Part shown: piece after piece, positions 10,931-56,752 of the stretch
Layout of the letters: each line of letters starts with the position of its first letter
Numbering within the stretch: the stretch's first letter is position 1
The notes under the pieces: generated by a model
Told to the model about the DNA's origin: nothing
What the model saw: only the letters and a program-made list of their open reading frames with translations
The model's database searches: none
Source: an uncultured Eubacteriales bacterium
GTDB lineage: Bacteria > Bacillota > Peptococcia > Peptococcales > SKKY01
Assembly: GCA_964642925.1 (NCBI GenBank)
Contig: CAZXPJ010000002.1
Location: forward strand, 80,494-144,493
Direction of reading: 5' to 3'
Length of the DNA stretch: 64,000 bases
Translations under genes and position numbers: made by a program

Positions 10931-10951
10931 AATAGGAGAGGAGGTATAATT

Positions 10952-11410: not shown

Positions 11411-12384
11411 AAAAAGATAAAGTTATTGTGATATCAACGGGTGGAACCATAGCCATGAGATATGATCCAATTCGAAAAGCAGTTTTTCCTGCTGTTACTG
11501 GCAAGGAATTATTAGAGGCAGTTCCTCCCCTTGCTGATCTTTGTCCAGTGGAAGTATATGAATTTTCTAATGTTCCCAGTTCCCATATGAATCCTCAATT
11601 AATGTTAAAATTAGCTTTGAAAGTTGAGGAATTATTAGCAGAAGATAATGTTCTAGGGGCGGTTATAACCCATGGTACGGACACTTTGGAGGAGACAGCT
11701 TATTTTTTAAATTTAGTTTTAAAAACTCAAAAACCTATCTGTGTGGTTGGAGCTATGCGTAGTTCCGCTGAAATAAGCCCAGACGGTCCTAAAAATATTT
11801 TTAATGCTGTCAAAACCGCTGCTAGCTCTGATGCTAGAAGTAAGGGGGTTTTAGTTGTCTTGAATGATGAAATTCATTCAGCTGTGGAAGTTACTAAAAC
11901 TAGTTCTTCTAATGTCAGCACCTTTAAGTCTCCATTTTGGGGCCCCTTAGGTTATGTTGATGATGATCGGGTTATTTTTCGTAGATCACCCATATCCTTA
12001 CAGAGAATAGATACAAAGGAAGTAATCGAAGATGTATACCTGGTAAAATTAGCAGCTGGAACGGATGATTTTATAATCCAAGCCCTAGTGGATAAAAAAG
12101 TAAAAGGTATAGTTATTGAGGGTATGGGTAGAGGAAATATTCCCCCTAAAGTAGTGCCAGGAATTGAAAAAGCTATTAAGGGAAATATCCCTGTTGTTCT
12201 TACAACGAGATGTCTTACAGGAAGGGTTTTAGGTGTTTATGGTTATGAAGGTGCCGCTAAACCCTTAAGTGAAATGGGCGTTATTCTTGGTGGAGATTTA
12301 AGTGGACAGAAAGCAAGGATAAAGCTTATGTTGGCTTTGAGTAAAACAAAGGATCCTAAAGAACTAGCAAAATATTTTGATTAA
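11407..12384 (+). CDS. L-asparaginase (type I-like)
   Basis: 325 aa. Contains TGGTIAM and HGTDTLEETA catalytic motifs. The GTG start overlaps the upstream stop codon (GTGA). Confidence 0.85.
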   Translation: MKKDKVIVISTGGTIAMRYDPIRKAVFPAVTGKELLEAVPPLADLCPVEVYEFSNVPSSHMNPQLMLKLALKVEELLAEDNVLGAVITHGTDTLEETAYFLNLVLKTQKPICVVGAMRSSAEISPDGPKNIFNAVKTAASSDARSKGVLVVLNDEIHSAVEVTKTSSSNVSTFKSPFWGPLGYVDDDRVIFRRSPISLQRIDTKEVIEDVYLVKLAAGTDDFIIQALVDKKVKGIVIEGMGRGNIPPKVVPGIEKAIKGNIPVVLTTRCLTGRVLGVYGYEGAAKPLSEMGVILGGDLSGQKARIKLMLALSKTKDPKELAKYFD

Positions 12385-20335: not shown

Positions 20336-20907
20336 TGAAAGATATTAGTATTTTGATCGTAGGAGTTGGAGGCCAAGGTACATTGCTTACTAGCCGAATT
20401 TTAGGTAGTGTGGCAATGGAACTAGGTTATGATGTTAAAATGAGTGAGCTTCACGGAATGTCTCAAAGGGGAGGGTCTGTTGTAACTTATGTAAAAATGG
20501 GGGAGAAAGTAAATTCTCCTATTATTGAGGAGCAAGAGGCAGATATTATTTTAGCTTTTGAAGAACTTGAGGGTTTAAGGTGGAATAGGTTTTTGAAGAA
20601 AGATGGACTAATGGTTGTAAACACTCAGAAAATTGACCCTATGCCAGTAATTATAAGAAAAGCTGAATATCCAAAGAATATAAGAGAAAAATTACAGGAA
20701 GCCTATCCAGAGACTATTTTAATTAATGCTTTAGAGATAGCTAGAAATTTAGGTAATGTAAAAGTGGTTAATGTAATTATGTTGGGCAAAATTGCTCGAA
20801 TCCTTGAGATAGAGGAAGAATTATTTATTAAAGCTATTAAAGAATCAGTACCTGCAAAATTGCTAGACTTAAATAAAGAAGCCTTTGCAGCGGGTTATAA
20901 TAGTTAA
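20335..20907 (+). CDS. iorB: indolepyruvate ferredoxin oxidoreductase subunit beta
   Basis: 190 aa. Contains ILIVGVGGQGTLL, the gamma-type domain of 2-oxoacid:ferredoxin oxidoreductases. The ATG overlaps the iorA stop codon. Confidence 0.85.
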   Translation: MKDISILIVGVGGQGTLLTSRILGSVAMELGYDVKMSELHGMSQRGGSVVTYVKMGEKVNSPIIEEQEADIILAFEELEGLRWNRFLKKDGLMVVNTQKIDPMPVIIRKAEYPKNIREKLQEAYPETILINALEIARNLGNVKVVNVIMLGKIARILEIEEELFIKAIKESVPAKLLDLNKEAFAAGYNS

Positions 20908-20922
20908 AGGGGGTAATTAAGG

Positions 20923-22224
20923 GTGCAAATTTGGAATCCTATATTTGAATGTATGGATAGAGAAGAACTGAAAAGAGTTCAGTCAGAGAGATTGGCTGCA
21001 GCTATAGATAGAGTCTATCATAATGTACCTTTTTATAGAAAAAAGATGCAGGAAAAGGGCCTATTACCGGGGGATATAAAAACTATAGATGATTTAAAAA
21101 ATCTTCCCTTTACTAATAAACAGGATCTTAGAGATAATTATCCCTTTGGATTGTTTGCCACCCCTATGAGTGAGATAGTGCGGATCCACGCTTCCTCTGG
21201 AACTACAGGAAAACAAACTGTTGTTGGCTACACAAGGAGGGATTTAGATACCTGGTCAGAAGTAATGGCTAGAACTCTAACAGCAGCGGAAATTGGTAGG
21301 GATTCATTTTTGCAGATAGCTTATGGCTACGGGTTATTCACAGGTGGTTTAGGAATTCATTATGGGGCAGAAAAAGTAGGAGCTTCAGTTATTCCTATCT
21401 CCGGTGGAAATACAAAAAGTCAGTTACAGGTTATGGAGGATTTTGGAACAACAAATCTAGCCTGTACTCCTTCCTATGCCTTGTACCTTGCGGAAGAAAT
21501 AGAAGAAAGAAATATAGATAGAAATAAACTAAAACTTAGAACGGGAATTTTTGGTGCAGAACCTTGGACGGAAAGTATGAGAAAAGAAATTGAAGAAAGA
21601 TTAGGAATAAAGGCCACAGACATTTATGGCTTATCAGAAATTATAGGACCTGGGGTTGCTTTTGAATGTATGAGCAGAAAAGGATTACATATTTCTGAAG
21701 ATCATTTTATACCTGAAATTATTCATCCTGTTACAGGAGAAGTTCTAGAGGAAGGTAGTGAGGGAGAACTAGTCTTTACTACAATTACTAAAGAAGGTCT
21801 TCCTTTAATTCGTTATCGTACTCATGACATTTCAAAACTAAGCTTTAGCAAATGTGATTGTGGTAGAAGTCTAGTTAGAATGACCAAGGTAACAGGTAGA
21901 ACGGATGACATGTTAATTATTAGAGGAGTAAATGTATTCCCATCACAAATTGAAAGTGTTCTCTTAGAAACATCAGATATTGCTCCTCACTATCAGTTAA
22001 TTTTAGATAGAAAAGGAAAGTTAGATGAATTAGAAGTCTTAGTGGAGATGTCTCCTAATTTGTTCTCTGACGAAGTAAGGAAACTGGAGATAGTTGAGTC
22101 AAATATTAAAAAAGAATTACAGTCTACATTAGGTATTAGTGTAAAAGTGAGATTAGTGGAGCCTAAAACAATAGCTCGAAGTGAAGGAAAAGCTGTGCGG
22201 GTAATAGATAAAAGAAAGTTCTAG
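20923..22224 (+). CDS. paaK: phenylacetate--CoA ligase family protein
   Basis: 433 aa with a GTG start. Contains SSGTTGK and typical PaaK N- and C-terminal domains (E.M.REEL...Q.ERL; [20 protein letters not shown]). Confidence 0.88.
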
Positions 22225-23069: not shown

Positions 23070-26000
23070 ATGGAAAATATTGTAAATATTCTAACCCAAG
23101 TGACAGCAGGAGCTTTTACAGGTTATATTACAAATACCTATGCAATAAAAATGCTTTTTAAAGAATATACAATTTTCAAAAGCATTAAAATAGGTGGAGT
23201 AATAATTAAAACCAAGGATGATTTTATAAAAAGAATCAGTGAATTGGTGGAAAAAGATATAATCAATGATAAAACCCTTGGTCGTGAACTACATAAAGAG
23301 AAATTTAAGGAAAGTATAGACAACTTTACAAGAGATTTCTTTATTGAAGCCCTCTTTGAAAGATTAGGAGACAGGAAGATAAAGGATCTTCAATTTTCAG
23401 CTGAAACAATAGAGGAAGCAAAAAAATATATTAAAAAATTGATCGAGAATAATATAGAGGAAGCTAGTGATTTAGTATTTAAAAATATAACTTTACAGGA
23501 TGTTTTGAGCCCAGAACAATTATCAATAAGTTTAAATAACCTGATTACAATAGTTTTAAAAAGAATTAATGACCAAGAAGTGGCTTCAGAGTTTATCCAA
23601 GAATTCCTTAAGGAAAATGGACATTATACTATAGAAGAATTATTTAAACTATCAGAAGGAATCTTAGAAGAAGAAATTAATAAAATTTATCTTGAAAACC
23701 CTAATTTGATAGATAGAATTTTTGCCATAATAAATAAAGAGGATTTGATTAAGAATTTTCAGTCTGTATTAGGGAATAAAAAAATAAAAGATATACTATT
23801 ACCCTCCCCCAGAGAAAATACTTTGGAAGATTTAAAGAAAAGTCTTAATATATTTATGGAATCACAAGAGGGATCCTTTCTGTTAAAAGAACTTTCTATA
23901 GAAATAATTAAAAAATTAAAAGAAAATGATAAATCCCCTATGGACCTCCTTGGGGATGATTTTATGTCAGAGTTAGAGGAATATTTAGAGAATATTTTAC
24001 CTTTTTTCATATCTCAAGTAGTACTGTGGATAAAAGAAAATTCCAAAGAAATAGAAGACCTTATTCAAGAAGGAATAGATGAAACTGTCCAGGGCGTAGA
24101 AGGAATGCGAGGAATGCTCCTGGCCATGATTAAAGATACTCTCTTAACAGACCTAGCATCAAAAAATATGCTAGCTCAACAGCTTGTAGATTTTATTAAT
24201 GACAAAATTAATCTTAAAGAAGTATCTTCAGGTATTTATGAAGAAATTTTTGCTTTTTTGAAAAAGAAAAAGATTAGCGAAATTATTGATGTTTTAGAAA
24301 AAAATGTTTTAATTAATCCAGAGATTCTGGCAGGGTATTTTAAAAAAGGATTAAATATTTTACTTGATTCTTTTGGAGTTAAATTATTAGAAAAATCAGT
24401 AGGTGAGATCTACCTGCCTAACTTTTCTGAAATTATAAATTCCCAAGAAGCTAAGGAAATTGTAATTAAACAATCAACCCAGGCTCTTAATCAAAAATTG
24501 GCAAATACTTTAAGGATTCCTTTAGAAGACCTTCTTCCTAAAGGAAATATTAAGTATCAATTTACCATGAAAAAGAAATCCTTCAATTTACAGGAAGATA
24601 TTTCTTTGACCATGCCTACTGTTGGAAAGGAAATAATCTTAACCTCAGTAGAAAATTATATTAAAAACTTGAAACATAAAGATTTAGGCTCCTATCTAAA
24701 TAGTTTTAATCAGAACCAGAATATTCACAAAAATACTGCGGAAAAACTACTTAACATACTTCATATAAATCTTCCTCAGATTCTTTCTGGGAAAATAGAA
24801 GCTTTAGTAGCAGATAATCTGAATAAACTTACTCCAGAAGAAGTAAGTGAAGTTGTTCATGACTTTATGGGTAGGGAGTTAGAGCCAATTACTAAGTTTG
24901 GTGGATTTTTAGGTGGAATTGCAGGCCTAATTCTTGCCCTTACTGGAGGAGGCATTCCTTTAACCTCTTTTGCAATTAGCCCTTTTTCATTATTGATATA
25001 TGGGGCTGTAGGAGTATTAACAAATGTTTTGGCATTAGAAATGATCTTTAGACCCTATAAAGAAAAAAAGTTTCTTAATAAAATTGGACTTTCTAATATC
25101 TCCCAAGGTTATATTATGAAAAACAAAAAATCTTTTGCTAAAAACATGGGAAAATTTGTTGATGAAAGTCTTTTGGAGCGAAGAATGATTACCAGTCGTT
25201 TTGAAAACCTAAAAATGGAATTAGCTTTTAATATTAAGAAAGAAATTTCAAAGGAAGATTATGCAATAATTGAAAAACTAGTTAATGAAAATCATTCAAA
25301 GATTGAAAGTGAACTTTTGGAAAAATCTCTAAAATCAGTTGAGAAAAACAAGGAAATTATAAGTAAAAATATTGCTGAAAAAGTTTCTATGATAGAAATT
25401 GGAAAATTACTTGGTCAAGACTTTAATAAGATAATTTTTTATGGGGAAGAGAAAGTAAGACAAACATACAAGAATCTGCTATCTTCAGAAGAAAAAATTT
25501 ATAAGCTTATTTCTCCAGAAATTTCTCATTTTTTAAAAATAAACCTTGAAGAAAAGATAGAATTATATTTAAATGGTGTTAAGGGACTAATATCCCAAAT
25601 AAAATCTCAAGAATTTATGAATGAACCCGTATCTTCCTGGATAGGTCATGGAAGAAAAAAGGATTTAGCTGATAAAATCCATGAGAAAGTTGAAGCAGGC
25701 TTATTCAATGAAAAATCAATTGGTAGAATATCCCACTTGATAAGAAAGAAAACCCAAGAACCATTAAATTCTAATTCCACAATAGGGAACATTTTTAATG
25801 GTAAACTTAGAGAATATGTGGATAATAACATTCCCTATATTATGGATAAATTAGAAAATTTAATTTTAAGAGCACTTGTAAATAACAAAGAAGATATTAT
25901 TAGAAAAATTCAATTAAATGTATATGAAAACTTAGCTGGCTTACAAAAAGGAGGATATGCTCTAATGGGGGGAGACCAGTTGATCGTAGATGTTTCAGAG

Positions 26001-26966
26001 CATATTATCTCAACAAAATTGCCCCCTTATCTAAAAAAATCAAAAAAGGACCTAGGAATGAACTTCAAAAAGGTCCTTGAAGAAAAGTTTTATACAATTA
26101 AACTTAAAGATATTCAGCTAAGTTTAAACGAAAAAGAACTGGACGTATTTATAACAGAAATACTAAGTTCGGAGGCTACAAAAAACAATATTCTTAGAGT
26201 GGTGCATTCTGCATCCACAGAAATAATTGCAAAAGTAGCAGAACTTCCTTTGGAAAAAATTATTGAAATATTCGGAAAAGAATTATTGATTTTAGAAGAA
26301 GATTTTTCCCATGAAGTAGACCTAAGAAAAAAAGAAATTTCAAAAGTAATTTCACAACATATTCTATTAATTATAGAAAGATTAACCTCCAAGATTAGTT
26401 TTAAAGATTTATTTGAAAACAATGAATGCTTTATTAATATTTTAGGAGAAGATAGAAGAACGGGAAAAGTATTCCACAACTTATTATTAAAAACTTATAA
26501 TGAAGATTTAAAAAAACTAAAGTTAGAGAATATTATTTCTCCTTCCTTACTTGCTATGGATCTTGAAAAATCTCTAGAGAAAACAATCAAAAATCCAGAG
26601 ATGCAAGATTATATACAAGAATTGATAGTAGAGATTATTAAAGATCTTGGTGAGAACCGATTGTCTTTTATAGCTCCTGAGACAAAAGATGATATATTAG
26701 ACCTTATAGTTTTTTCTGGATTAGATTCTTTAGAAAAGAATCTTCCAGATATATTATTAGCAGTGGATTTTAAAAGAATTACAGAAGAAGAAATAAATAA
26801 AATGGAAGGGAGGGAAATTCATAATTTATTTAAATCCTTTGCAGGGAAATACTTTACCCGTCTTAAGCTTTGGGGAGCTATCGGAGCAGGTTTTGGAATC
26901 CATGGGGGAATTAGTTTATTGGCTACAGTATCTTATTTAATGAAAAGAGGAAGAACTAGTGAGTAA
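23070..26966 (+). CDS. giant tandem-DUF445 membrane-associated protein
   Basis: 1298 aa. There are two DUF445-type N-terminal signatures: GYITNTYAIKMLFKEY near aa 18 and GVLTNVLALEMIFRPY near aa 648. There are two matching module ends: EVSEVVHDFMGRELEPITKFGGFLGGIAGL near aa 600 and REIHNLFKSFAGKYFTRLKLWGAIGAGFG at the C-terminus. I saw no P-loop. Confidence 0.7.
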   Translation: MENIVNILTQVTAGAFTGYITNTYAIKMLFKEYTIFKSIKIGGVIIKTKDDFIKRISELVEKDIINDKTLGRELHKEKFKESIDNFTRDFFIEALFERLGDRKIKDLQFSAETIEEAKKYIKKLIENNIEEASDLVFKNITLQDVLSPEQLSISLNNLITIVLKRINDQEVASEFIQEFLKENGHYTIEELFKLSEGILEEEINKIYLENPNLIDRIFAIINKEDLIKNFQSVLGNKKIKDILLPSPRENTLEDLKKSLNIFMESQEGSFLLKELSIEIIKKLKENDKSPMDLLGDDFMSELEEYLENILPFFISQVVLWIKENSKEIEDLIQEGIDETVQGVEGMRGMLLAMIKDTLLTDLASKNMLAQQLVDFINDKINLKEVSSGIYEEIFAFLKKKKISEIIDVLEKNVLINPEILAGYFKKGLNILLDSFGVKLLEKSVGEIYLPNFSEIINSQEAKEIVIKQSTQALNQKLANTLRIPLEDLLPKGNIKYQFTMKKKSFNLQEDISLTMPTVGKEIILTSVENYIKNLKHKDLGSYLNSFNQNQNIHKNTAEKLLNILHINLPQILSGKIEALVADNLNKLTPEEVSEVVHDFMGRELEPITKFGGFLGGIAGLILALTGGGIPLTSFAISPFSLLIYGAVGVLTNVLALEMIFRPYKEKKFLNKIGLSNISQGYIMKNKKSFAKNMGKFVDESLLERRMITSRFENLKMELAFNIKKEISKEDYAIIEKLVNENHSKIESELLEKSLKSVEKNKEIISKNIAEKVSMIEIGKLLGQDFNKIIFYGEEKVRQTYKNLLSSEEKIYKLISPEISHFLKINLEEKIELYLNGVKGLISQIKSQEFMNEPVSSWIGHGRKKDLADKIHEKVEAGLFNEKSIGRISHLIRKKTQEPLNSNSTIGNIFNGKLREYVDNNIPYIMDKLENLILRALVNNKEDIIRKIQLNVYENLAGLQKGGYALMGGDQLIVDVSEHIISTKLPPYLKKSKKDLGMNFKKVLEEKFYTIKLKDIQLSLNEKELDVFITEILSSEATKNNILRVVHSASTEIIAKVAELPLEKIIEIFGKELLILEEDFSHEVDLRKKEISKVISQHILLIIERLTSKISFKDLFENNECFINILGEDRRTGKVFHNLLLKTYNEDLKKLKLENIISPSLLAMDLEKSLEKTIKNPEMQDYIQELIVEIIKDLGENRLSFIAPETKDDILDLIVFSGLDSLEKNLPDILLAVDFKRITEEEINKMEGREIHNLFKSFAGKYFTRLKLWGAIGAGFGIHGGISLLATVSYLMKRGRTSE

Positions 26967-28922: not shown

Positions 28923-30596
28923 TTGAATCAGAAGATACGTTTGGGAGATTTGCTTGTAGATAATAATATAATAACTCAGGAACAGTTAATGGAAGCCCTT
29001 CAAGAACAAAAAGATACTAAAAAGAGATTGGGCTCTGTCCTTATTGATCTTAAATTTGTTTCTGAAGAAAAACTTAATGAATTTTTATCCAAACAACTAA
29101 ACATCGAATATAGAAGTTTGACTATCCAAGATCTAGACCTAGAAGCGGCAAAACTCATTCCTGAAAATGTTGCTAGAAGAAGCAATGTTATTCCTTTTTC
29201 CAAAATAGGCAATTCACTTTATTTAGCTATGAGTGATCCATTAGATCGTTTATCTGTTCAAGATGTAAGGTTCCTAACTAATTTAGAAGTTAAGCCTGTT
29301 CTTGTTAAAGAATCAGATATAAAGAACTTAATAGATAGTACCTTTAAAAGTGGAGATATTAAAGATGCTGCTAATGAGTATTTAAATAATTTAGATGATT
29401 TAAGTGAGTTAGAAAGAGGCTCATTAGATATTAATGCAGCACCCATTGTAAAATTAATTAAATCAATTTTTGACAGCGCGGTTAGTATGAATTCCAGTGA
29501 TATACATATTGAACCTGAAGAGGAAAAAATGAGAGTTCGTTTTAGAATTGATGGTATTTTACAAGAGACTCTATCTACGGATATTAAACCTCATAATTCT
29601 GTAGTTAATAGAATAAAAATTTTATCAGGAATGAATATTTCAGAAAAAAGATTACCCCAAGATGGAAGAATTCTTCATGATAGTAATGGTATGCCCATAG
29701 ATATGAGAGTATCTTCTATGCCCACTAATCATGGGGAGAAAATAGTTATTAGACTTTTAAACAGAGCTAATTTTATGGTACACAAAAAGAGCTTGGGTTT
29801 CTCTGAAAGAGATGAGTTAATTTTTGAAAAATTTCTTAAGACACCCTATGGGATTATAATTGTCACAGGGCCAACAGGAAGTGGTAAAACCACAACCTTA
29901 TACTCTATGCTGAATGAATTAAATGACAATAAGAAAAATATAATAACTTTAGAAGATCCAATTGAATTTGATATAAAAGGAATTAGTCAAACCCAAGTTA
30001 ATACAGAAGCGGGGCTTTTTTTTAGCAATGGATTAAGATCTATACTTCGCCAAGATCCGGATATTGTTATGGTTGGTGAAATTCGTGATGGTGAGACAGC
30101 GGATATTGCCATTAGGGCAGCTTTAACGGGACACTTAGTATTGACAACTTTACATACAAATAATGCTGTAGGAAGTATTCCTCGTTTAATAGATATGGGA
30201 ATCGAACCCTTTTTATTATCCTCATCTTTAATAGGGATAATATCTCAACGCCTAGTCAGAAAAATTTGCCCAAAATGTAAAGTTGAATATAAGGCAACAG
30301 AAGATGAAAAAAGGCTATTGGGAGTTTCTTTAGAAGAGGACCTAACTTTATATAAAGGAGAGGGCTGTGGAAATTGTATGCAGTCTGGATATAAGGGAAG
30401 AACTGGTGTTTTTGAAGTATTGGAAGTATCCCGAGGAATTCGGAAACTAATAGATGAAGGTGCCAGCGGTGATGATATAAATGATTTAGCCTTATCCCAA
30501 GGTTTTCAGGGCTTATTTTTAGATGGTAAGAAGAAAGTTCTTGACGGGGTAACAACAATAGAGGAACTTATAAGGGCTGCTTATATTGGCGGATAG
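28923..30596 (+). CDS. pilB: type IV pilus assembly ATPase PilB (GspE family) with MshEN-type N-domain
   Basis: 557 aa with a TTG start. Contains Walker A GPTGSGKTTT, LRQDPDIVMVGEIRD and the tetracysteine CPKC...CGNC. The N-terminus carries tandem RLGxxL...Q repeats. Confidence 0.9.
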   Translation: MNQKIRLGDLLVDNNIITQEQLMEALQEQKDTKKRLGSVLIDLKFVSEEKLNEFLSKQLNIEYRSLTIQDLDLEAAKLIPENVARRSNVIPFSKIGNSLYLAMSDPLDRLSVQDVRFLTNLEVKPVLVKESDIKNLIDSTFKSGDIKDAANEYLNNLDDLSELERGSLDINAAPIVKLIKSIFDSAVSMNSSDIHIEPEEEKMRVRFRIDGILQETLSTDIKPHNSVVNRIKILSGMNISEKRLPQDGRILHDSNGMPIDMRVSSMPTNHGEKIVIRLLNRANFMVHKKSLGFSERDELIFEKFLKTPYGIIIVTGPTGSGKTTTLYSMLNELNDNKKNIITLEDPIEFDIKGISQTQVNTEAGLFFSNGLRSILRQDPDIVMVGEIRDGETADIAIRAALTGHLVLTTLHTNNAVGSIPRLIDMGIEPFLLSSSLIGIISQRLVRKICPKCKVEYKATEDEKRLLGVSLEEDLTLYKGEGCGNCMQSGYKGRTGVFEVLEVSRGIRKLIDEGASGDDINDLALSQGFQGLFLDGKKKVLDGVTTIEELIRAAYIGG

Positions 30597-30608
30597 GGGT
30601 TTTATTTA

Positions 30609-31844
30609 ATGGCTGTTTATAAATATCGAGCTATGGGCAAAGATGGAAAAATAAGAAGCTCCGAAATTGAAGGAGCTTCTGTAAATGATGCTAGAATAAA
30701 AATTAAAGAAATGGATTTAACTCCTATTGAAATTATTCCAGAAAGAGAAAAAAAAGAAAAAGGCGATGGTTTTTTAAATGCAAGTCTATTTAAACCGAAA
30801 AAATCCCAAAAATATCTTAAGGTAGATGTTTTAAGCCATTTTTGTAGACAGTTATCTGTTATTATAGATTCAGGAATAAATACGATTAAAGGTTTGGAGG
30901 TTTTAAAACTTCAAATTTCCGATAAGAGGACTCAGGGTGAAATTGACAGATTGATTAACTCCATAGAGCGAGGTTTAACTATATCTGAAGCAATGGATGC
31001 TCCTGGAAGTCTCTTTCCTCCTATTTTAGCGGGAATGGTTAGGGCAGGAGAATCAACAGGAAAAATTGATATAGTACTAAGAAGCATGGCAGATTATTAT
31101 GAAAAAGAGAACTTGTTGCAGAAGAAAATAAAGTCTGCATCAGTTTATCCCATAATCGTATTAGTAATGGCTTTGGCCTTGGTAATATTTTTCGTGAATT
31201 TCCTCTTTCCTATGGTTATTAATATAGTAGAAAGTTCTGGTGGCAAACTCCCTTTCCTGACAAGAGCAGTTATTGGAATTTCAACCCTATTACGAGATTA
31301 TTTTTACCTTATAATTCCATTATTTATTTTAATCATCTTAGGAATAAGAAATTATTTATCTAAAGAAAAAGGTAAAAGATTGCTAGATAAGTTTCTTTTT
31401 AAATTACCCTTGATCGGTACTTCAAAAAAAAATATTATTAGCTTAAGATTCTCCATGGCCATGTATGTTTTTACTCTTAGTGGATTTTCTATTATTCAAG
31501 GTTTAGTATTATTAAAAAGTATTGTAGGGAGCCCTCTAGCTGAAGATAGCATAGATTCTACAATTAAGGGTCTCCAAAGGGGAGAATCCATTAGTGAAAA
31601 TCTTAAAAGAGATCAATTTTTTGACGATATATTAATTCAAATGGTATCAATTGGAGAAGAAACAGGGCAAATGCAAAAGCTTACAGAAAAGTTAGTGGAT
31701 TATTATGATAAAGAAGTGGAGTTAGGAATAAACAAGCTAATTTCCCTTGCTGAACCTACTTTAATGTTAGTTATTGGTGTAGTAGTAGGAGCCTTGATAA
31801 TCTCAGTAGCCTTACCAATGTTAACCATGTTCACTAATATTTAG
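30609..31844 (+). CDS. pilC: type IV pilus platform protein PilC (GspF family)
   Basis: 411 aa with two GspF repeats and 3 TM segments. Typical sequence (F.RQLS..IDSGI....L). Confidence 0.88.
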   Translation: MAVYKYRAMGKDGKIRSSEIEGASVNDARIKIKEMDLTPIEIIPEREKKEKGDGFLNASLFKPKKSQKYLKVDVLSHFCRQLSVIIDSGINTIKGLEVLKLQISDKRTQGEIDRLINSIERGLTISEAMDAPGSLFPPILAGMVRAGESTGKIDIVLRSMADYYEKENLLQKKIKSASVYPIIVLVMALALVIFFVNFLFPMVINIVESSGGKLPFLTRAVIGISTLLRDYFYLIIPLFILIILGIRNYLSKEKGKRLLDKFLFKLPLIGTSKKNIISLRFSMAMYVFTLSGFSIIQGLVLLKSIVGSPLAEDSIDSTIKGLQRGESISENLKRDQFFDDILIQMVSIGEETGQMQKLTEKLVDYYDKEVELGINKLISLAEPTLMLVIGVVVGALIISVALPMLTMFTNI

Positions 31845-31869
31845 ATTTTAATAAGACGGGAGCCAGAAA

Positions 31870-32775
31870 ATGAGCAAACTGTTTATTCAGATAATGGACA
31901 CAAATATAACTTTAACTGCTGGTTCATTAAAAAGACAGGATGAATATACCATCTCTTTCCAAAAGGAGATAGAAATGGATATTTCTAAGGAAAATCCAGA
32001 TGCTTTTGGGCAAAGAGTTATAGATGAGTTCACTTTAGCTAATGTTTTTGTTCATGGAAGAAAAAAACAAGATATTGACATAATTTATAGCAAACAAGGA
32101 ATTCTATATAGAATCATCAAAATTCCCTTAATGCCCATGGATGATTTAGAAAAAATGATGGAAATGGAAAAAGGAGAATATTTATCTGTAAATCCCGATG
32201 ATTACGAGATAAGATATAAAGTTGTTGACAAATATGATGAAAATGGACAAATATTTTGGGATATTGCTATTGCAGGAGCGGAAAAGAAAAAATTAAACCA
32301 AATTGTAGATACATTAGATAAATTTGCTTTTAAAATAAATTTTGTAGATATACTACCTTCTAATTATGAGCGTTTCTTTTCAAAAGTAGAGGAGAGGGAT
32401 TTAATTATATTAGAAGATGATGGAGATTCTTCAAGAATATGTATTTTAAAGAGTGGCAAGGTTTTTCTTTATGCTGACTTTCCTATAGATAATAAAGAAA
32501 TGTTTATTTCTGGCGATTATAGCAAGCTTATTTCAGAAGTAAGAGGTTATATGGAGTATTATTCATCTCGTAACTTCGGCAAGACTATTGATGCACTTAT
32601 TTTATTAAGAAATTATAATGAAAAGATTATTCGTGAGGAAATTCTAAATTTAGTTCAGATAAAGATATATAAAACTGAAGAATTACAAGAGATATTACTA
32701 AAAAACAAAGAAGAAGGCTCCCAGGAGACATCAATAGAAAGATTCTATGCAGCAATGAGTTTAATGAATTTATAG
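31870..32775 (+). CDS. pilM: PilM-like pilus assembly protein
   Basis: 301 aa with no TM. Actin-like PilM pattern (P.M..DDLE..M..E..EYL...P.DYE.RY.V; A.A.K..L.Q....L....F....VD.LP). It sits in the standard pilC-pilM-pilN-pilO order. Confidence 0.6.
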   Translation: MSKLFIQIMDTNITLTAGSLKRQDEYTISFQKEIEMDISKENPDAFGQRVIDEFTLANVFVHGRKKQDIDIIYSKQGILYRIIKIPLMPMDDLEKMMEMEKGEYLSVNPDDYEIRYKVVDKYDENGQIFWDIAIAGAEKKKLNQIVDTLDKFAFKINFVDILPSNYERFFSKVEERDLIILEDDGDSSRICILKSGKVFLYADFPIDNKEMFISGDYSKLISEVRGYMEYYSSRNFGKTIDALILLRNYNEKIIREEILNLVQIKIYKTEELQEILLKNKEEGSQETSIERFYAAMSLMNL

Positions 32776-32785
32776 CCGGGGGCAG

Positions 32786-33439
32786 GTGAGCATTTTGACA
32801 AAAGATAATTTCAATTTTATTCCAGAAGCATATCTAGAAAAAGAAAAAATAAGAAAAAGACAAAGAATGGTTAAAATTTTATTACCCATTCTAATTCTTA
32901 TGCTTATTTTACCTGTAGCCCTAATTTATTTCAGTAACCAAAATACTCTAGAAAAAATTGATAAACTGCAAGAGGAACAAAAAATCCTACTAGAAGAAGT
33001 TCAAGAAATGGAATTGGTAGAATCAAATATTGCCGAAATAGAAGGTAGAATTAGTATCTTTTCAGATTTGTTAAGCAATTCCTATAAAAGAGTTATTAAT
33101 ATTAGAAATATTGAAAAATACATACCCAAAGAGATTATTTATACTAAAATTTCTCTTTTGTTTTCCGACTATACAGCCTTTTCCTCGGAGGAAATAGAAT
33201 TAGGAGCCAAGGAAGAAGCTGTAGAGGAACCAGAGCTTAAGATTTACGAAAATGTTCCAAACATAATGGTTATTGAGGGAAAAACAAGAAAATTAGAAGC
33301 CATTAGCAGATTCGTTTATCAACTTAATCAGGATCCTTTAATGGAAGTTGTAAATATGGAGCAAATAAGTTGGCTAGAAGAAGAAAAAATAAACTCCTTT
33401 CTTATAATTGTTGAAATAAAGGAGGATGTTTTAAAATGA
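32786..33439 (+). CDS. pilN: PilN-like pilus assembly protein
   Basis: 217 aa. N-terminal FNFIPE motif, one TM and a coiled coil. The true start may be the TTG at 32795. Confidence 0.5.
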   Translation: MSILTKDNFNFIPEAYLEKEKIRKRQRMVKILLPILILMLILPVALIYFSNQNTLEKIDKLQEEQKILLEEVQEMELVESNIAEIEGRISIFSDLLSNSYKRVINIRNIEKYIPKEIIYTKISLLFSDYTAFSSEEIELGAKEEAVEEPELKIYENVPNIMVIEGKTRKLEAISRFVYQLNQDPLMEVVNMEQISWLEEEKINSFLIIVEIKEDVLK

Positions 33440-34188
33440 CTGACAAAAGGTTAAAATACCTAAAAATTGCTGGCCTAACTTTTATCCTTGCTTTTTATCT
33501 TTATTTTCTCATATTTAGTCAACTCCAGGATAATATAATCTTAAAAAGAGAAGAAAAAAGACTAATTGAAGAAAACCTAGCTTATGCAGAAAGGCTAGAA
33601 GGATTAAAAAATACCGAAGAAATTTTAACATATTTAGAAAAAGAGGCACTTTTAGTTGAAGAAAAACTTAAACATGACTTGAGGGATGGAGCTTTTCTTG
33701 TTAATTTAACGGAGAAAATATCAAAAGAAAAGTTAATATTGGCATCCTATTCTATAAGTCCAGTACAAGACTTTCAAAGTTTTTACGCTTTACCTGGTAA
33801 AATTACTTTAGTGGGAAATTATAGAGGAGTAATGAATGTTCTTAACTATATGGAATATCAGCCTAATATGACTCAAATTCAGGATATCACAATAAAAGAT
33901 ATGGAAGAGAATGAAATTGAAATGTATTATGGAAGTGGAGAGGATTTTGGTCTACTAACAGATAAAATTCTAGTAGAAAGAGATCCAGCTACGGTTCTAC
34001 CTGGGGAAAGCCCCTATGAGGAAGTGGAAATAACTAGGTCCATTGAAGTCAATTTGGATGAATTGTTTTCTGGAAGGGTAATAGCAGAATGCACTTATGT
34101 TCTTTATACAATCCCCAGTCCTCAGGCGAAAATAGAATTAAATAATATTCAAAATTGGAGAACAGGGAATCCTAATCCTTTTCAATAA
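33436..34188 (+). CDS. pilO: PilO-like pilus assembly protein
   Basis: 250 aa with an N-terminal TM and a coiled coil. It overlaps pilN by 4 nt. The call rests mainly on position and topology. Confidence 0.45.
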   Translation: MTDKRLKYLKIAGLTFILAFYLYFLIFSQLQDNIILKREEKRLIEENLAYAERLEGLKNTEEILTYLEKEALLVEEKLKHDLRDGAFLVNLTEKISKEKLILASYSISPVQDFQSFYALPGKITLVGNYRGVMNVLNYMEYQPNMTQIQDITIKDMEENEIEMYYGSGEDFGLLTDKILVERDPATVLPGESPYEEVEITRSIEVNLDELFSGRVIAECTYVLYTIPSPQAKIELNNIQNWRTGNPNPFQ

Positions 34189-34221
34189 AATTAACTAAGT
34201 TAAAACTAAGGAGGACTTTAT

Positions 34222-35265
34222 ATGGATAGGATCACAGGGGCATTAAAAATCGCTATAGAGAGTAAGGCTTCGGATATCCATTTAAGTCACGGAAGCCCAC
34301 CTATTCTAAGAATAAATGGGGAATTGGTTAAAACTGAGTTTTCCCCTCTAGAGGACGAGATTATTGAAAAATTTATTAGGGATATTGGAACTCCCCTCCT
34401 CCTTGAGGAATATAAGGAAAAAGGGGAAGCTGATTTTGCTCATTTGATTTTCCAACAAAGGTTTAGGATTAATATATTCCGGGAGCGTTGCAACAATGCA
34501 GTAACTATGCGCTTAATAAATGATGAAATTCCAGATATAGATAAAATGGGAATGCCAGAGGTATTTAAGGTCTTAAGCAAAAAGAAAAATGGGTTAATTC
34601 TTGTAACAGGACCGACAGGCTCAGGTAAGTCTACAACGATGGCTGCTATTATTAATGAAATCAATAAAAATGAGAGCCGTCATATTATTACTCTTGAAGA
34701 TCCAATAGAATATATTTTTGCAAATAATAAAAGTCTTATTAAACAAAGAGAAGTAAATGTGGATACAAAAAGTTTCTCTAATGGGGTAAGAGCTTCCCTC
34801 CGCCAAGACCCAGATGTAATTTTAGTAGGAGAAATGAGAGATTTTGAAACAGTAAGTGCCGCGATAATGGCAGCGGAAACAGGGCACCTTGTTATATCCA
34901 CATTGCATACTCTAGGAGCAACCAAAACAATAGATAGAATAATTGATGTATTTCCTCCTCACCAACAAGGACAGATTCGTTCCCAATTAGCTATGACCTT
35001 AGAGGGTGTTATTTCTCAAGTTCTTTTGAAAAATATAAGAAATAACGGTAGAGTAGCCGCTTATGAAATTATGCTGGCTAATCATGCAATCCGGAATTTA
35101 ATTAGAGAAGGGAAAACTCATCAATTGCAAAATGTTATTCAAACTAGTGCCAAAAGCGGTATGATAACTATGGATATGTACTTAAAAAATTTAGTTAATG
35201 AGCAGATAGTAACTCATGAAGCTGCATCAGAACATATAGTAGAAGAGTTAACCCTTGTTAATTAA
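34222..35265 (+). CDS. pilT: twitching-motility (retraction) ATPase PilT
   Basis: 347 aa. Contains ASDIHL, Walker A GPTGSGKSTT, LRQDPDVILVGEMRD and TGHLVISTLHT. Confidence 0.9.
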   Translation: MDRITGALKIAIESKASDIHLSHGSPPILRINGELVKTEFSPLEDEIIEKFIRDIGTPLLLEEYKEKGEADFAHLIFQQRFRINIFRERCNNAVTMRLINDEIPDIDKMGMPEVFKVLSKKKNGLILVTGPTGSGKSTTMAAIINEINKNESRHIITLEDPIEYIFANNKSLIKQREVNVDTKSFSNGVRASLRQDPDVILVGEMRDFETVSAAIMAAETGHLVISTLHTLGATKTIDRIIDVFPPHQQGQIRSQLAMTLEGVISQVLLKNIRNNGRVAAYEIMLANHAIRNLIREGKTHQLQNVIQTSAKSGMITMDMYLKNLVNEQIVTHEAASEHIVEELTLVN

Positions 35266-55017: not shown

Positions 55018-55209
55018 ATGAAAGAATTATATAAGTCTAATAATGATAAAATGATTTTTGGAGTAGCTGGAGGTATTGGAGAGTTTTTTGGCATTTCTGG
55101 TACAGTAATAAGATTACTCTTGGTTATTTTTACTATGGCAGGAGGAAGTGGTTTCTTGCTTTATATTCTTGCGGCTATCATAATGCCCTCTAGTAATGTG
55201 TATAGATAA
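55018..55209 (+). CDS. PspC-domain small membrane protein (copy 1)
   Basis: 63 aa. KELYKSNNDKMIFGVAGGIGEFFGIS..VIRLL is the canonical PspC domain. GAGGAGG RBS precedes the ATG at 55018. Confidence 0.8.
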   Translation: MKELYKSNNDKMIFGVAGGIGEFFGISGTVIRLLLVIFTMAGGSGFLLYILAAIIMPSSNVYR

Positions 55210-55254
55210 AAATGAAGAAATAAAAAAAATGAATAAGCACAAATAAGATACTCT

Positions 55255-55395
55255 AGCGCCAGAACCCAGAAAGGGTTGACGAGGAGGAAGTTAATCGAAA
55301 ATTTCGGCGGATGCTTCCCGGTTTCTGCTTAATCGATAGGGAGGGTACAAAACCTGAAAGTGATTTCAGGAACAAAAACCTCGCCCTTAAGCAGT
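55255..55395 (+). ncRNA. glmS ribozyme (GlcN6P-dependent self-cleaving riboswitch)
   Basis: The core is readable: A|GCGCCAGAAC, the P1 hairpin ACCC-AGAAA-GGGU, UUGACGAGG, GGAAG/CUUCC, AUCGAAAAUUUCGGCGGAUGC, the 8-bp helix CUGCUUAA/UUAAGCAG, and the peripheral hairpin CCUGAAA-GUGA-UUUCAGG. It lies directly upstream of a glmS-derived ORF. The predicted cleavage site is between 55255 and 55256. Confidence 0.9.
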
Positions 55396-55422
55396 TGTGC
55401 TTAAAAATAAGGAGGCACTTTT

Positions 55423-56547
55423 ATGTGCGAAAAAGCTATAAATGCAGAAGATATAGAAAAAATAATTTATCCACACTTTATGATCAAAGAAATATATGAA
55501 CAACCAGAGGTTTTTAAAAAAACTCTCCAGGGAAGATTAAATGGAAATAAAGTTGATTTTAGTGAATTAGCTATCCCAATAGAAGAGATAAAAAAATGGA
55601 AAAAAATATTTTTTGTTGCCTGTGGGACCTCTTATCATGCAAGTCTTGTGGGTAAAGAAATAATAGAAAGATGTACTAATATTCCAGTGGAAGTGGAAAT
55701 TGCATCAGAATATAGATATAGAAAAGCTATGGTAGATGAAGATACTTTAGTTATAGTTATAAGTCAGTCTGGTGAAACAACAGATACCTTTGAGTCTATC
55801 CAAAAATCTAAAGATGCTGGGGCAAAGGTTTTAGCCATAACTAATGTAGTTGATAGCCCCATTGCTAAAAAATCAGATTATGTTGCATATATCTGGGCAG
55901 GTACAGAAATATCCATAGCTTCAACTAAAGCTTATACAACAACATTAATTGTTTTATATCTTTTAACTTTCTATATAGCCGAAATAAGGGGAAGCATGGA
56001 TCAAGAGGAATTATCCTCATTAGTTGGGGAACTGGTTAAAATGCCTTATTATGGGAAGCTAGCTTTAGAGGATGAAATGCCTAAGGAAATTGCGGAATTT
56101 TTAAAGCCAGAAACAGATGCTTTCTATGTAGGTAGAGGAATAGATAAGTTGATCGCCTTAGAGGGTGTTTTAAAACTTAAAGAGACATCATATATGCATG
56201 CGGAAGCCTATGCGGCAGGGGAACTAAAACACGGAACTTTTGCTTTATTAAGTAATGAAACAAATATGATGGTTATTAATACTCAACAGGAACTTTCAGA
56301 TAAAACTTTATTAAATGCCCAAGAAGTTAGAGAAAAAGGAGCTAGATTATTTATATTAGCCCAATTAGGTGATGAGGAATCAAAGAATTACGCGGATAAG
56401 GTTTTATATATTCCTAAAATGCATGATTTTTTTACCCCAATCATAGCTGCTATACCTCTTCAACTTATTGCTTATTATACTGCATTAGGTAAAGGAAGAA
56501 ATGTGGATCAACCAAGAAACCTAACTAAGGCTGTTACCGAGGAGTAG
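55423..56547 (+). CDS. GlmS isomerase-domain-only protein (two SIS domains; glutaminase domain absent)
   Basis: 374 aa. It begins MC, then EKAINAEDIEKIIYPHFMIKEIYEQPE, which corresponds to roughly residue 235 onward of a 600-aa GlmS. It also contains CGTSYHA, SQSGETTD, GELKHG and the C-terminal DQPRNLTKAVTEE. AAGGAGG RBS is present. Confidence 0.85.
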   Translation: MCEKAINAEDIEKIIYPHFMIKEIYEQPEVFKKTLQGRLNGNKVDFSELAIPIEEIKKWKKIFFVACGTSYHASLVGKEIIERCTNIPVEVEIASEYRYRKAMVDEDTLVIVISQSGETTDTFESIQKSKDAGAKVLAITNVVDSPIAKKSDYVAYIWAGTEISIASTKAYTTTLIVLYLLTFYIAEIRGSMDQEELSSLVGELVKMPYYGKLALEDEMPKEIAEFLKPETDAFYVGRGIDKLIALEGVLKLKETSYMHAEAYAAGELKHGTFALLSNETNMMVINTQQELSDKTLLNAQEVREKGARLFILAQLGDEESKNYADKVLYIPKMHDFFTPIIAAIPLQLIAYYTALGKGRNVDQPRNLTKAVTEE

Positions 56548-56551
56548 AAAA

Positions 56552-56752
56552 ATGAAAAAAATGTACAAATCGAATAAAGACAAAATGATATTTGGAGTTT
56601 GCGGAGGTATTGGAGAATTCTTTGGAGTTTCCAGTACACTCATTAGATTGCTATTTGTTATTTTTACATTAGCTAGAGGAAGCGGTGTTCTTTTTTATAT
56701 AATTGCGGCGATTATAATGCCTTCAGATAATGTATATAAGCTAACAAAATAG
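56552..56752 (+). CDS. PspC-domain small membrane protein (copy 2)
   Basis: 66 aa. KKMYKSNKDKMIFGVCGGIGEFFGVS..LIRLL is a paralog of the 55018 gene. It starts 4 nt after the glmS-like stop codon. Confidence 0.8.
   Translation: MKKMYKSNKDKMIFGVCGGIGEFFGVSSTLIRLLFVIFTLARGSGVLFYIIAAIIMPSDNVYKLTK

Follow-up and report, generated by a model that had tools for sequence, protein, structure and literature searches.

What does a glmS ribozyme control when the gene behind it encodes the isomerase half of GlmS alone? As the textbook amidotransferase, GlmS is said to have no use for ammonia from outside, and it counts as the essential and universal way into UDP-GlcNAc and as an antibiotic target. A locus of the kind in question is present in DNA from an uncultured Eubacteriales bacterium (SKKY01; assembly GCA_964642925.1, contig CAZXPJ010000002.1, forward strand, positions 80,494-144,493). 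This stretch of 64,000 nt, the part of the host genome that was analysed, is referred to as the window, and all coordinates below are window positions. A preliminary description, made from the sequence alone, had left two readings side by side: a recent in-frame deletion with a decaying gene, or a functional ammonia-dependent GlcN6P synthase or deaminase still under GlcN6P feedback. The former was rejected and the latter is favoured by the comparisons reported here, because the deletion is old, the gene is under purifying selection and the ribozyme is conserved.

Anatomy of the locus

The locus comprises the following features.

55018-55209, + strand: pspC-1, small PspC-domain membrane protein, 63 aa from its ATG (Pfam PspC, E = 1.8e-21)
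55244-55394, + strand: glmS ribozyme (RF00234), by family a GlcN6P-activated self-cleaving RNA
55397-55418, + strand: hairpin GUGCUU...AGGCAC, read directly from the sequence, predicted part of the expression platform
55423-56547, + strand: gene of the glutaminase-less GlmS, 374 aa, 2xSIS isomerase/synthase domain alone
55423-55431, + strand: deletion scar ATG TGC / GAA = M-C / E, from protein and DNA alignments
56524-56526, + strand: codon ACT of Thr368, equivalent to E. coli Ala602, adjoining the Schiff-base Lys369 (= K603)
56552-56752, + strand: pspC-2, tandem paralogue of pspC-1 (Pfam PspC, E = 3.6e-24)

The ribozyme matched the covariance model RF00234 from end to end (model positions 1-167 of 167, not truncated) with 101.7 bits and E = 1.2e-22, against a gathering score of 37, which bears out its earlier description as intact-looking. 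By homology, the cleavage site A|GCGCC is predicted between A55255 and G55256. In an alignment of nine related ribozymes, compensatory changes, that is double changes that keep the pair, were present in 18 of the 35 predicted pairs. Twenty-eight nt separate the 3' end of the ribozyme from the start codon of the ORF, and both lie on the same strand. The predicted hairpin that follows it overlaps the Shine-Dalgarno sequence AAGGAGG (55409-55415), situated 7 nt 5' of the glmS start codon, and the hairpin appears to be common to the full-length relatives; the string TTGTGCTTAAAAATAAGGAGGCAC at the hairpin was conserved in six of seven aligned loci.

The ORF begins with MCEKAINAEDIEK. Its sole Pfam match was to the 2xSIS half (SIS, 192.9 bits, in two stretches) and neither GATase_6 nor GATase_7 matched the 374 aa. 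On the NCBIfam glmS model TIGR01135, residues 6-374 aligned to positions 239-607 of 607. With phmmer, residues 12-374 aligned to residues 244-608 of E. coli GlmS and also to the isolated isomerase domain 1MOQ (E = 8.7e-83). Based on these alignments, the N-terminus of the ORF coincides with the interdomain linker, where the preliminary description had placed it. The total scores were 415.5 for TIGR01135 (cut-off 418.05) and 424.4 for NF001484 (cut-off 381). A tblastn search of the 64-kb window with the glutaminase domain of a close relative returned nothing, even at E <= 10. Pfam, TIGR01135 and tblastn thus agree with the preliminary description that the whole glutaminase domain is absent and that the Met and Cys codons alone are left of it.

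The neighbours of the 374-aa gene encode PK, two PspC proteins, a rhomboid protease and a Na/H exchanger; PFK, like PK, is encoded just upstream. The position of pspC-1 upstream of glmS is conserved in short-form and full-length relatives alike (called in L001-L018, 5' of the ribozyme). Its paralogue pspC-2 (76% aa identity over 63 aa by BLASTP) occurs at the window and P0001 loci, but the full-length loci L015, L017 and L018 lack it. Since pspC-2 starts 5 nt past the glmS stop codon, it is probably co-transcribed with glmS and hence also placed behind the ribozyme. A sigma-70 promoter scan of the interval from pspC-1 to the ribozyme gave no convincing site. Elsewhere in the window lie genes for an asparaginase, an IorA-like oxidoreductase and a phenylacetate-CoA-ligase-like enzyme, which are taken as amino-acid-fermentation genes.

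Age and maintenance of the deletion

Compared with the syntenic 606-aa orthologue P0005, 232 codons (696 bp) are missing, equivalent to residues 3-234 in P0005 numbering. The scar fuses codons 1-2 of the glutaminase domain to linker residue E235 of P0005 (the E of EITWN). The in-frame deletion between codon 2 and approximately codon 235 that had been proposed at the outset was therefore recovered by alignment, with the junction MC|E.

Three diverged orthologues, with 90, 78 and 71% identity, are also isomerase-only and occupy the same PK-PspC-ribozyme slot, which in sister taxa (L015, L017 and L018) holds a full-length GlmS of 606 aa. In the tree, the short forms were monophyletic with 100% bootstrap support and were nested, again with 100% support, inside the full-length clade. 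Orthology of the 374-aa gene with glmS is thus supported by synteny and phylogeny. The MC|E junction was kept by three of the four short lineages (the window, P0001 and L014, the last read from a GTG start) and was lost in the P0002 lineage through a shift of the start codon. The differing N-termini (MCEK..., MEEK... and MGKGG...) had suggested independent truncations inside the clade, but these were ruled out by the 100% clade support, the junction behind the GTG start of L014 and the derived residues common to all four lineages. The deletion is old and predates the split of the four lineages, which reaches down to about 70% aa identity. These comparisons place in the clade ancestor a single in-frame deletion that removed codons 3-234 from glmS at its usual chromosomal position and spared the promoter, the ribozyme, the ribosome-binding site, the start codon and the Cys2 codon. 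A GTDB genome scan that took the alignment of the four short forms as its query, and in which generic GlmS peptides were used, gave a best locus of 50% identity among the matches listed.

The 374-aa gene is under purifying selection. Among the short orthologues, dN/dS ranged from 0.086 (at dS 0.54) to 0.20, with dS between 0.5 and 1.1, and neither frameshifts nor stop codons were present. For a full-length pair dN/dS was 0.031; with values about three times higher, selection on the short forms is somewhat relaxed. The ribozyme scored 100-102 bits in all four short lineages of the clade. Its identity to the ribozymes of the three orthologues was 93, 79 and 80%, whereas third codon positions of the gene agreed at 76, 58 and 55%, so the ribozyme evolves at a much lower rate than synonymous sites.

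The locus might in principle be the product of mis-assembly, or of a recent deletion in a gene now decaying, and the MC dipeptide does resemble a fresh scar. An identical 374-aa protein in an identical context was however found on 15 contigs from independent runs, which disposes of the mis-assembly that the preliminary description had named as a possible refutation. A decaying gene is contradicted by the age of the deletion in four long-diverged lineages, by the dN/dS of 0.09-0.20 over open frames and by the conservation of both the ribozyme and the Shine-Dalgarno sequence. Artefact and pseudogene are consequently hardly credible. Of the two initial readings, the decaying gene was dropped and a functional enzyme under GlcN6P feedback is the one that the sequences favour.

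Recurrence and the residue-602 signature

The isomerase-only gene behind a ribozyme recurs in several lineages, a point that had been missed on first reading. Three further isomerase-only lineages with a ribozyme were found, including the cultured Anaerosphaera multitolerans, where a ribozyme of 71 bits lies 19 nt upstream of the gene for WP_127723569.1. At the P0268 locus, glmM is followed by a ribozyme (90.7 bits) and then by an isomerase-only gene that also starts MC. The isomerase-only gene of P0254 has a ribozyme at 93.7 bits, and that of P0371 starts 37 nt past glmU. For A. multitolerans, the top 120 homologues included no further GlmS of its family. The preliminary description had reasoned that negative feedback by GlcN6P suits a synthase but would be paradoxical for a deaminase; this argument is strengthened by isomerase-only genes that follow glmM and a ribozyme, or glmU. 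In the literature searched, no description of a truncated, isomerase-only or ammonia-dependent GlmS was found.

A large isomerase-only GlmS-like family from soil and peat has the same NLTKAV tail and adjoins genes for DeoR regulators and BadF-type sugar kinases. No ribozyme was detected in the representatives scanned. Its context looks catabolic, so that the signature is not specific to the anabolic direction. The NLTKAV tail had been considered as a marker of that direction and was rejected on account of this family.

All sugar-site residues (S347, Q348, S349, T352, K485, E488, H504 and K603 in E. coli numbering) are present in the 374-aa protein, and T302, Q348, S349, T352, T402, K403, K485, E488, H504 and K603 were invariant in all short forms. 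The protein differs at position 602, which adjoins the Schiff-base lysine. Among 193 aligned full-length GlmS, 98% have Ala here, whereas all 16 short forms have Thr or Val (four of four in the window clade and 12 of 12 other isomerase-only representatives). Four full-length GlmS had Thr602, and in all four Cys1 was replaced by Ser; Thr or Val602 occurred in 4/4 of the Cys1->Ser full-length forms and in 0/186 of the full-length GlmS starting MC. A near-identical copy of one of these Cys1->Ser/T602 proteins lies on a locus (L143) with a ribozyme of 72.3 bits. Ala602, which corresponds to Ala676 of hGFAT2, touches Trp74, the gate of the ammonia channel (PMC7948480; PMC10087520). Besides A602T, the convergent changes, which adjoin catalytic residues, comprised I489T, V399I and a rewritten C-tail (positions 606 and 607).

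On the proteins compared, A602T/V is the signature substitution of glutaminase-less GlmS. Under this name we propose a grouping, not a curated family, of proteins that are derived from GlmS, have no working glutaminase (by domain loss or Cys1->Ser), carry Thr or Val at position 602 and retain an intact sugar site. The 374-aa protein, with Thr368 at this position, belongs to it. The C-terminus had been called canonical in the preliminary description, which did not hold: the window protein ends in ...PRNLTKAVTEE and canonical GlmS in ...PRNLAKSVTVE, and this difference proved diagnostic. The sugar site of canonical GlmS is closed by the tail ...NLAKSVTVE, which also lines the ammonia channel.

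Compared with the ribozyme-led GlmS of Bacillus and other Bacillota (TIGR01135), the locus has the same PK-PspC-ribozyme-glmS order (seen in the 606-aa relatives), a ribozyme at the same level of about 100 bits, the same 2xSIS fold and catalytic residues and the same logic of negative feedback by GlcN6P. It differs by the absence of the class-II glutaminase domain, the tail LTKAVTEE in place of LAKSVTVE and the additional I489T and V399I, and the protein cannot obtain glutamine nitrogen through an intramolecular channel. The closest laboratory counterpart is 1MOQ (E. coli GlmS 241-608), with near-identical boundaries (residues 12-374 align to 4-368 of 368). That construct is man-made and keeps A602, I489 and V399, whereas the natural protein has the convergent substitutions, a history of selection and its own regulation.

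Archaeal GlmD (NF041128) and NagB-II (NF046059; PDB 8EOL, 3HBA) resemble the 374-aa protein as isomerase-only enzymes with two SIS domains, and would share with it the reversible chemistry GlcN6P <-> Fru6P + NH3. They are shorter (about 325-335 aa versus 374) and the alignment to 8EOL ends at residue 318, short of the GlmS C-tail. They are also catabolic, whereas the 374-aa gene derives from a bona fide glmS and falls outside both families; neither is known to be ribozyme-regulated. NagB run in reverse is an alternative source of GlcN6P, as in the suppression of E. coli glmS mutants and in the anabolic deaminase of Giardia, and at high ammonium it makes GlcN6P from Fru6P and free ammonia, as proposed here. 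NagB has an unrelated fold and is induced by amino sugars, not repressed by GlcN6P. At the present locus, the solution would be built into the glmS gene itself, with glmS regulation kept.

Nitrogen source and direction of the reaction

We consider it fairly probable that a functional GlcN6P synthase, regulated by feedback and independent of glutamine, is encoded here. As the arrangement has been kept by selection and has arisen repeatedly, the enzyme probably makes GlcN6P, a precursor of the cell wall, directly from free ammonia. The 2xSIS domain would still bind Fru6P, Lys369 (K603) would form the Schiff base, and isomerisation would proceed via Glu254 (E488) and His270 (H504). Nitrogen would come from free NH3 and not from the glutaminase channel (Fru6P + NH3 <-> GlcN6P), with A602T, I489T, V399I and the rewritten C-tail presumably re-fitting the former channel exit for solvent ammonia. 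GlcN6P would activate self-cleavage of the 5' ribozyme and thereby lower the expression of glmS, and probably that of pspC-2. In a host that lives in ammonia-rich anaerobic digesters and has amino-acid-fermentation genes in the window, the glutaminase half may have become dispensable.

Several points count against this proposal. E. coli GlmS and its isolated isomerase domain reportedly use exogenous ammonia poorly or not at all, and those SIS-only relatives that have been characterised, GlmD and NagB-II, act as deaminases. The tail signature also occurs in the catabolic-looking soil and peat family, selection on the short forms is somewhat relaxed, and a full-length glmS, a nagB or a separate glutaminase gene may lie outside the 64-kb window. 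The runs carrying the 374-aa protein were digestates of full-scale biogas plants, in which total ammonia nitrogen is a main driver of community composition (PMC7842101). A biogas fermenter was also the source of A. multitolerans, and members of its family use peptone and amino acids for fermentation (PMC6486247). In engineered yeast at high ammonium, GlmD, a SIS-only enzyme, has been made to work as a synthase (PMC12385614), by analogy with which ammonia-fed synthesis is chemically feasible.

The 374-aa protein could instead be a catabolic deaminase converting GlcN6P to Fru6P and NH3. Its architecture is that of GlmD and NagB-II, the reaction is reversible, so that one protein can in principle do either, and the soil and peat family joins the same tail to DeoR regulators and BadF-type kinases. 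The HMM similarity to the known deaminases is real but weak, the scores (105.3 for GlmD against a cut-off of 580, 130.8 for NagB-II against 430) being far below threshold. For a deaminase, shut-off by the ribozyme at high GlcN6P has the wrong sign, and yet it is conserved in the four lineages of the clade and in the three further ones. Moreover, the gene replaces glmS at the orthologous locus, other cases stand in glmM-glmS or glmU-glmS arrangements, and neither nagA, a sugar transporter nor a sugar-responsive regulator lies beside the 374-aa gene in the window. A deaminase is accordingly held to be unlikely. Rather unlikely, in our estimation, is an accessory isozyme in a cell with another route to GlcN6P, which would catalyse a different reaction, for instance a PGI-like one or one on another amino sugar, and use the ribozyme for regulatory coupling. 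The isolated E. coli isomerase domain is said to have PGI-like activity, a second glmS might lie outside the 64-kb window, and constraint on the short forms is mildly relaxed. Every residue specific to the Fru6P/GlcN6P chemistry is nevertheless invariant, including the Schiff-base lysine, the locus is the orthologous glmS locus, A. multitolerans gave no second GlmS of the family among its top 120 homologues, and an ordinary glycolytic PFK and PK are already encoded just upstream in the window.

Glutamine-dependent synthesis could also be restored by a glutaminase subunit encoded elsewhere that docks in trans. Many amidotransferases are two-subunit enzymes, glutaminase-only GlmS pieces of about 240-250 aa are numerous in the protein database, and the genome extends beyond the 64 kb analysed. 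Neither the window nor the surroundings of any short gene contained a glutaminase-like sequence, however. With the exception of a single fragment from a P0005-like full-length sister organism, the stand-alone glutaminases had at most 61% identity to the sister-clade domain, in a set of short or partial proteins, mostly contig-end fragments or entries labelled partial, that did not include the full-length sisters. The residues that contact the glutaminase and the Trp74 gate (A602 and C-tail positions 606 and 607) are exactly those convergently replaced, a pattern contrary to the one expected of a retained interface, and the Cys1->Ser full-length proteins share A602T. A split enzyme is therefore regarded as very unlikely.

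Beyond this locus, the ammonia-dependent synthase may be one member of a natural class. According to this broader proposal, which we regard as evenly balanced, the dependence of GlmS on glutamine has been lost repeatedly among anaerobes of ammonia-rich habitats, by deletion of the glutaminase or by Cys1->Ser, each time with A602T/V and in most lineages with I489T/S and V399I, so that solvent NH3 reaches the Fru6P Schiff base. The ribozyme would have been kept in Bacillota, and these ribozyme-regulated GlcN6P synthases would be mis-annotated by current pipelines as glutamine amidotransferases. If this is true, few changes, in a concrete set of residues, suffice to switch an active site from channel-fed to ammonia-fed, the loss of the glutaminase half is tied to ammonia-rich habitats, and the selective value of the ribozyme persists through a change in the nitrogen source of the enzyme. 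Metabolic reconstructions of digester and gut anaerobes would then change as well, because the A. multitolerans homologue is named GlmS, the glutamine-dependent enzyme, at NCBI. Anaerosphaera multitolerans DSM 107952 is a cultured strain with the arrangement, which makes the reading directly testable.

Anatomy of the ribozyme and the truncated gene

The region under study comprises a glmS ribozyme, a short glmS gene behind it and two PspC-domain genes:

55018-55209: PspC-domain gene, 5' flank of the short glmS gene
55244-55394, + strand: glmS ribozyme (Rfam RF00234, 101.7 bits against a gathering score of 37, E = 1.2e-22)
between 55255 and 55256, + strand: predicted cleavage site A/GCGCC, read from the sequence
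55409-55415, + strand: Shine-Dalgarno sequence AAGGAGG, 7 nt 5' of the ATG at 55423
55423-56547, + strand: short glmS, ORF of 374 aa with ATG start (Pfam: SIS domains only)
56552-56752: second PspC-domain gene, starting 5 nt past the glmS stop codon

The RF00234 match spans all 167 model positions, which confirms the glmS ribozyme recognised by eye in the preliminary description; the RNA is an ordinary member of its family. Just 3' of it, a 6-bp hairpin GUGCUU...AGGCAC (55397-55418) overlaps the Shine-Dalgarno sequence. Short-form and full-length relatives alike keep this hairpin, which may provide an extra layer of translational control.

Residues 6-374 of the ORF aligned with positions 239-607 of the 607-position glmS model of NCBIfam, and with phmmer residues 12-374 matched residues 244-608 of E. 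coli GlmS and residues 4-368 of the 368 in the crystallised isomerase-domain construct 1MOQ. The window protein, which has the same boundaries as this laboratory construct, therefore starts at the interdomain linker, behind a relic Met-Cys. When the nearest full-length relative's glutaminase domain was used as a tblastn query, no match appeared anywhere in the 64 kb of the window at a cut-off as loose as E <= 10. The preliminary reading of an isomerase-only ORF beginning at the domain boundary was thus upheld, but the C-terminus it called canonical differs from the norm (PRNLTKAVTEE versus PRNLAKSVTVE). The protein is an orthologue of GlmS, yet two defining features of GlmS are missing from it: the canonical C-tail and the glutaminase domain. 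Its scores against the GlmD and NagB-II deaminase families lie far below the cut-offs, so it belongs to neither. No NCBIfam model exists for isomerase-only GlmS; all such proteins match GlmS models best.

Origin and maintenance of the deletion

The identical protein was found on 15 contigs from many independent sequencing runs, with constant neighbours. Homology searches yielded three short orthologues with identities of 90% (374 aa), 78% (364 aa) and 71% (363 aa), followed by full-length proteins of 606 aa at 66%. In all three, pyruvate kinase and PspC genes precede the short gene, and the roughly 200 nt between PspC and the short gene hold a glmS ribozyme (100.6-102.4 bits). In three loci of sister taxa (L015, L017 and L018) the 606-aa relatives, with ribozymes of 101-107 bits, fill the same slot. 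The upstream genes are alike in all three; on the downstream side, L015 and L017 also carry the rhomboid, Na/H-exchanger and P-type-ATPase genes. The short gene is therefore the glmS orthologue at its normal locus. Mis-assembly or another artefact is contradicted by the 15 contigs and by the diverged short orthologues at the same locus.

Trees recover the four short forms as a single clade with 100% bootstrap support and place it, also with 100%, inside the full-length clade. In the DNA alignment, ATG TGY G.. is kept in the window, in the orthologue P0001 and in the orthologous locus L014, where the start codon is GTG and the protein reads MCEEMGKGGY. The retained codons are joined to the equivalent of E235 of the 606-aa protein, so that 232 codons (696 bp) are gone, in line with the roughly 700 bp expected earlier between codons 2 and about 235. 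The start codon later moved downstream in the lineage of the orthologue P0002, with loss of MC; the dipeptide is therefore a scar and not a functional element. The deletion in the window clade is one ancient event.

The closest pair of short orthologues has a dN/dS of 0.086 (dS 0.54) and the other short pairs 0.12-0.20, against 0.031 for one full-length pair, so constraint is somewhat relaxed yet clearly purifying. This contradicts a pseudogene, and the recent deletion and decaying gene considered in the preliminary description are rejected on such values and on a deletion older than the split of four lineages. The window ribozyme is 93, 79 and 80% identical to those of the three short orthologues, compared with 76, 58 and 55% at third codon positions of the gene. 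Nine related ribozymes, when aligned, show double changes that preserve pairing at 18 of 35 predicted pairs. Ever since the deletion, therefore, the truncated gene has been maintained, and so has the RNA.

Recurrence and residue signature of glutaminase loss

An exhaustive profile search of cluster representatives revealed many further GlmS-like proteins of 360-390 aa beginning at the linker, three of them with an MC start. Twelve short forms outside the window clade were kept as not being obvious fragments, and each resembles at least one full-length GlmS more than it resembles the other short forms. In trees, the short P0353 groups with the full-length P0259, and the window clade with P0004-7, both with 100% support, which speaks strongly for separate origins in at least some cases. 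P0254 shares 65% identity with the full-length P0025 but just 49% with the window protein; P0288 has one short relative at 68%, followed by full-length Peptoniphilus proteins at 58%. DNA context was obtained for five cases.

Genomic context of further isomerase-only and Cys1-to-Ser GlmS proteins
P0254 (L103): ribozyme of 93.7 bits, 112-nt gap to a new start codon
P0268 (L104, from the biogas project that also yielded the window organism): glmM, ribozyme of 90.7 bits, MC-start gene 29 nt on
P0288 (WP_127723569.1; L227 and L228, Anaerosphaera multitolerans): ribozyme of 71 bits, 19 nt upstream
P0371 (L105 and L106, Deferribacteraceae MAG): gene start 37 nt past glmU, no ribozyme
P0347-type (L143): full-length, Cys1 to Ser, ribozyme of 72.3 bits

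A ribozyme with an isomerase-only GlmS is found in at least four lineages, and a ribozyme-less short gene can occupy a glmU-glmS operon. The deletion scar of the P0254 lineage differs from that of the window: within the 112 nt (L103 425-536) the old Shine-Dalgarno sequence AAGGAGG persists at 434-440 with no ORF behind it. A. multitolerans is available as cultured strain GS7-6-2 (DSM 107952, assembly RLIH01) from a biogas fermenter (PMC6486247). Its protein is named 'isomerizing glutamine--fructose-6-phosphate transaminase' in RefSeq, and its best 120 homologues include no second GlmS of its family from this organism, which is weak evidence. Glutaminase-only GlmS pieces of about 240-250 aa were also observed (P0139, P0141, P0144 and P0166). 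Their clusters of 15-72 members are too large to be dismissed at once as contig-end fragments, and they could represent the converse split or truncation.

When the four window-clade proteins and the 12 remaining short forms were aligned with 193 full-length proteins (E. coli numbering, Cys1 as in PDB 1JXA), T302, Q348, S349, T352, T402, K403, K485, E488, H504 and K603 proved invariant in every short form. Four positions change together; they flank the catalytic residues Glu488 and Lys603 and the loop 399-403.

Residues distinguishing short from full-length GlmS
602: full-length Ala (98%); other short forms Thr/Val (12/12); window clade Thr (4/4)
607: full-length Val (98%); other short forms replaced or lost (11/12); window clade replaced (4/4)
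489: full-length Ile (90%); other short forms Thr/Ser (10/12); window clade Thr (4/4)
399: full-length Val (98%); other short forms Ile (10/12); window clade Ile (3/4)

For Ala602 (Ala676 in human GFAT2), contact with the Trp74 gate of the ammonia channel has been reported, and the C-tail shuts the sugar site (PMC7948480; PMC10087520). Thr602 also occurs in four full-length representatives (P0256, P0260, P0277 and P0347), all starting MSG instead of MCG, so the glutaminase nucleophile is lost; they look like glutaminase-dead GlmS still carrying the domain. Among proteins of 590-640 aa, 186 combine an MC start with Ala602, seven another start with Ala, four MS with Thr and none MC with Thr. L143 (2058-4200) encodes a near-identical copy of P0347 and has kept its ribozyme. 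JGI metagenomes, scanned for D-x-P-R-N-L-T-K-A-V, gave at least 120 loci. At least 106 were GlmS-like, and at least 79 of these had no in-frame glutaminase domain, a minority of the 79 being short or broken frames; exactly one of the matches listed was full-length, L143 with its Cys1 to Ser change. Thr or Val at 602 thus marks GlmS proteins no longer using their own glutaminase.

The signature alone gives no flux direction. It is also present in a family of GlmS-like, isomerase-only proteins that is abundant in soil and peat (L108-L226; ...ASGSSRHAG...VDHPRNLTKAVLAE), about 35-40% identical to GlmS and covered by no NCBIfam model. The gene is flanked by a divergent DeoR regulator on its upstream side and by a BadF/BadG-type kinase 23 nt downstream (examples L129 6169-7315 and L123 6017-7388), and no ribozyme was detected in the four members scanned. 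This context looks catabolic; the same chemistry may therefore run both ways, with its direction possibly set by regulation and context.

Proposed function and genomic surroundings

The pairing of a ribozyme with a glutaminase-less GlmS is a genuine variation on a well-known system, kept by selection and seen repeatedly. Key ribozyme-distribution surveys aside, the full-text literature searched describes no GlmS that lies behind a glmS ribozyme and is truncated, isomerase-only or ammonia-dependent. The variant is surprising for amidotransferase enzymology, and the cultured strain allows direct testing. What is said of its anatomy and evolution is solidly grounded; the biochemistry is inferred, on good grounds.

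The window protein has an intact sugar-site machinery but no glutaminase. A GlcN6P-responsive RNA is kept, and the former channel-exit residues have been remodelled in parallel across many lineages. We lean towards a GlcN6P synthase using solvent ammonia under GlcN6P feedback, which would catalyse Fru6P + NH3 <-> GlcN6P. At the window locus the synthetic direction would prevail, as a ribozyme lowering expression at high GlcN6P suits a producer and not a consumer, and as the short gene replaces glmS at its own locus, with equivalents elsewhere wired to glmM or glmU. A split enzyme, in which a trans-acting glutaminase encoded elsewhere restores glutamine use, is disfavoured because the residues contacting the glutaminase are the ones that changed. 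The analysis covered single loci of these genomes, which may hold such a glutaminase, a second glmS or a nagB elsewhere. For the ammonia-dependent synthase there is a parallel in engineered yeast, where the SIS-only GlmD made GlcN6P from Fru6P and ammonium (PMC12385614). An ammonia-rich biogas habitat fits this reading: among the runs with the window protein are SRR8925715, SRR8925726 and SRR8925799, from full-scale biogas-plant digestates, and the study concerned names total ammonia nitrogen as a primary determinant of community composition (PMC7842101). The family of A. multitolerans ferments peptone and amino acids (PMC6486247). An asparaginase, an indolepyruvate:ferredoxin-oxidoreductase-like pair and a phenylacetate-CoA-ligase-like gene in the window (11407-12384, 18590-22224) suggest an amino-acid-fermenting, ammonia-producing lifestyle.

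The two PspC-domain genes of the window are 76% identical. From its distance to the glmS stop codon, the second is probably also behind the ribozyme. The window and P0001 loci carry this second gene and the loci with full-length glmS do not, a comparison that excludes the other two short lineages, whose contigs end before that position. In L015 a glycine riboswitch (57.4 bits) and a PTS_EIIC_2-family gene are inserted between glmS and the rhomboid gene (10039-11253), and in L018 a glycine riboswitch precedes a Gly_transporter gene. Elsewhere in the window, a 1298-aa protein with no assigned function (23070-26966) lies upstream of a type IV pilus or type II secretion set (28923-35265), with pilB-, pilC-, pilM-, pilN-, pilO- and pilT-like genes recognised by eye from translations only.
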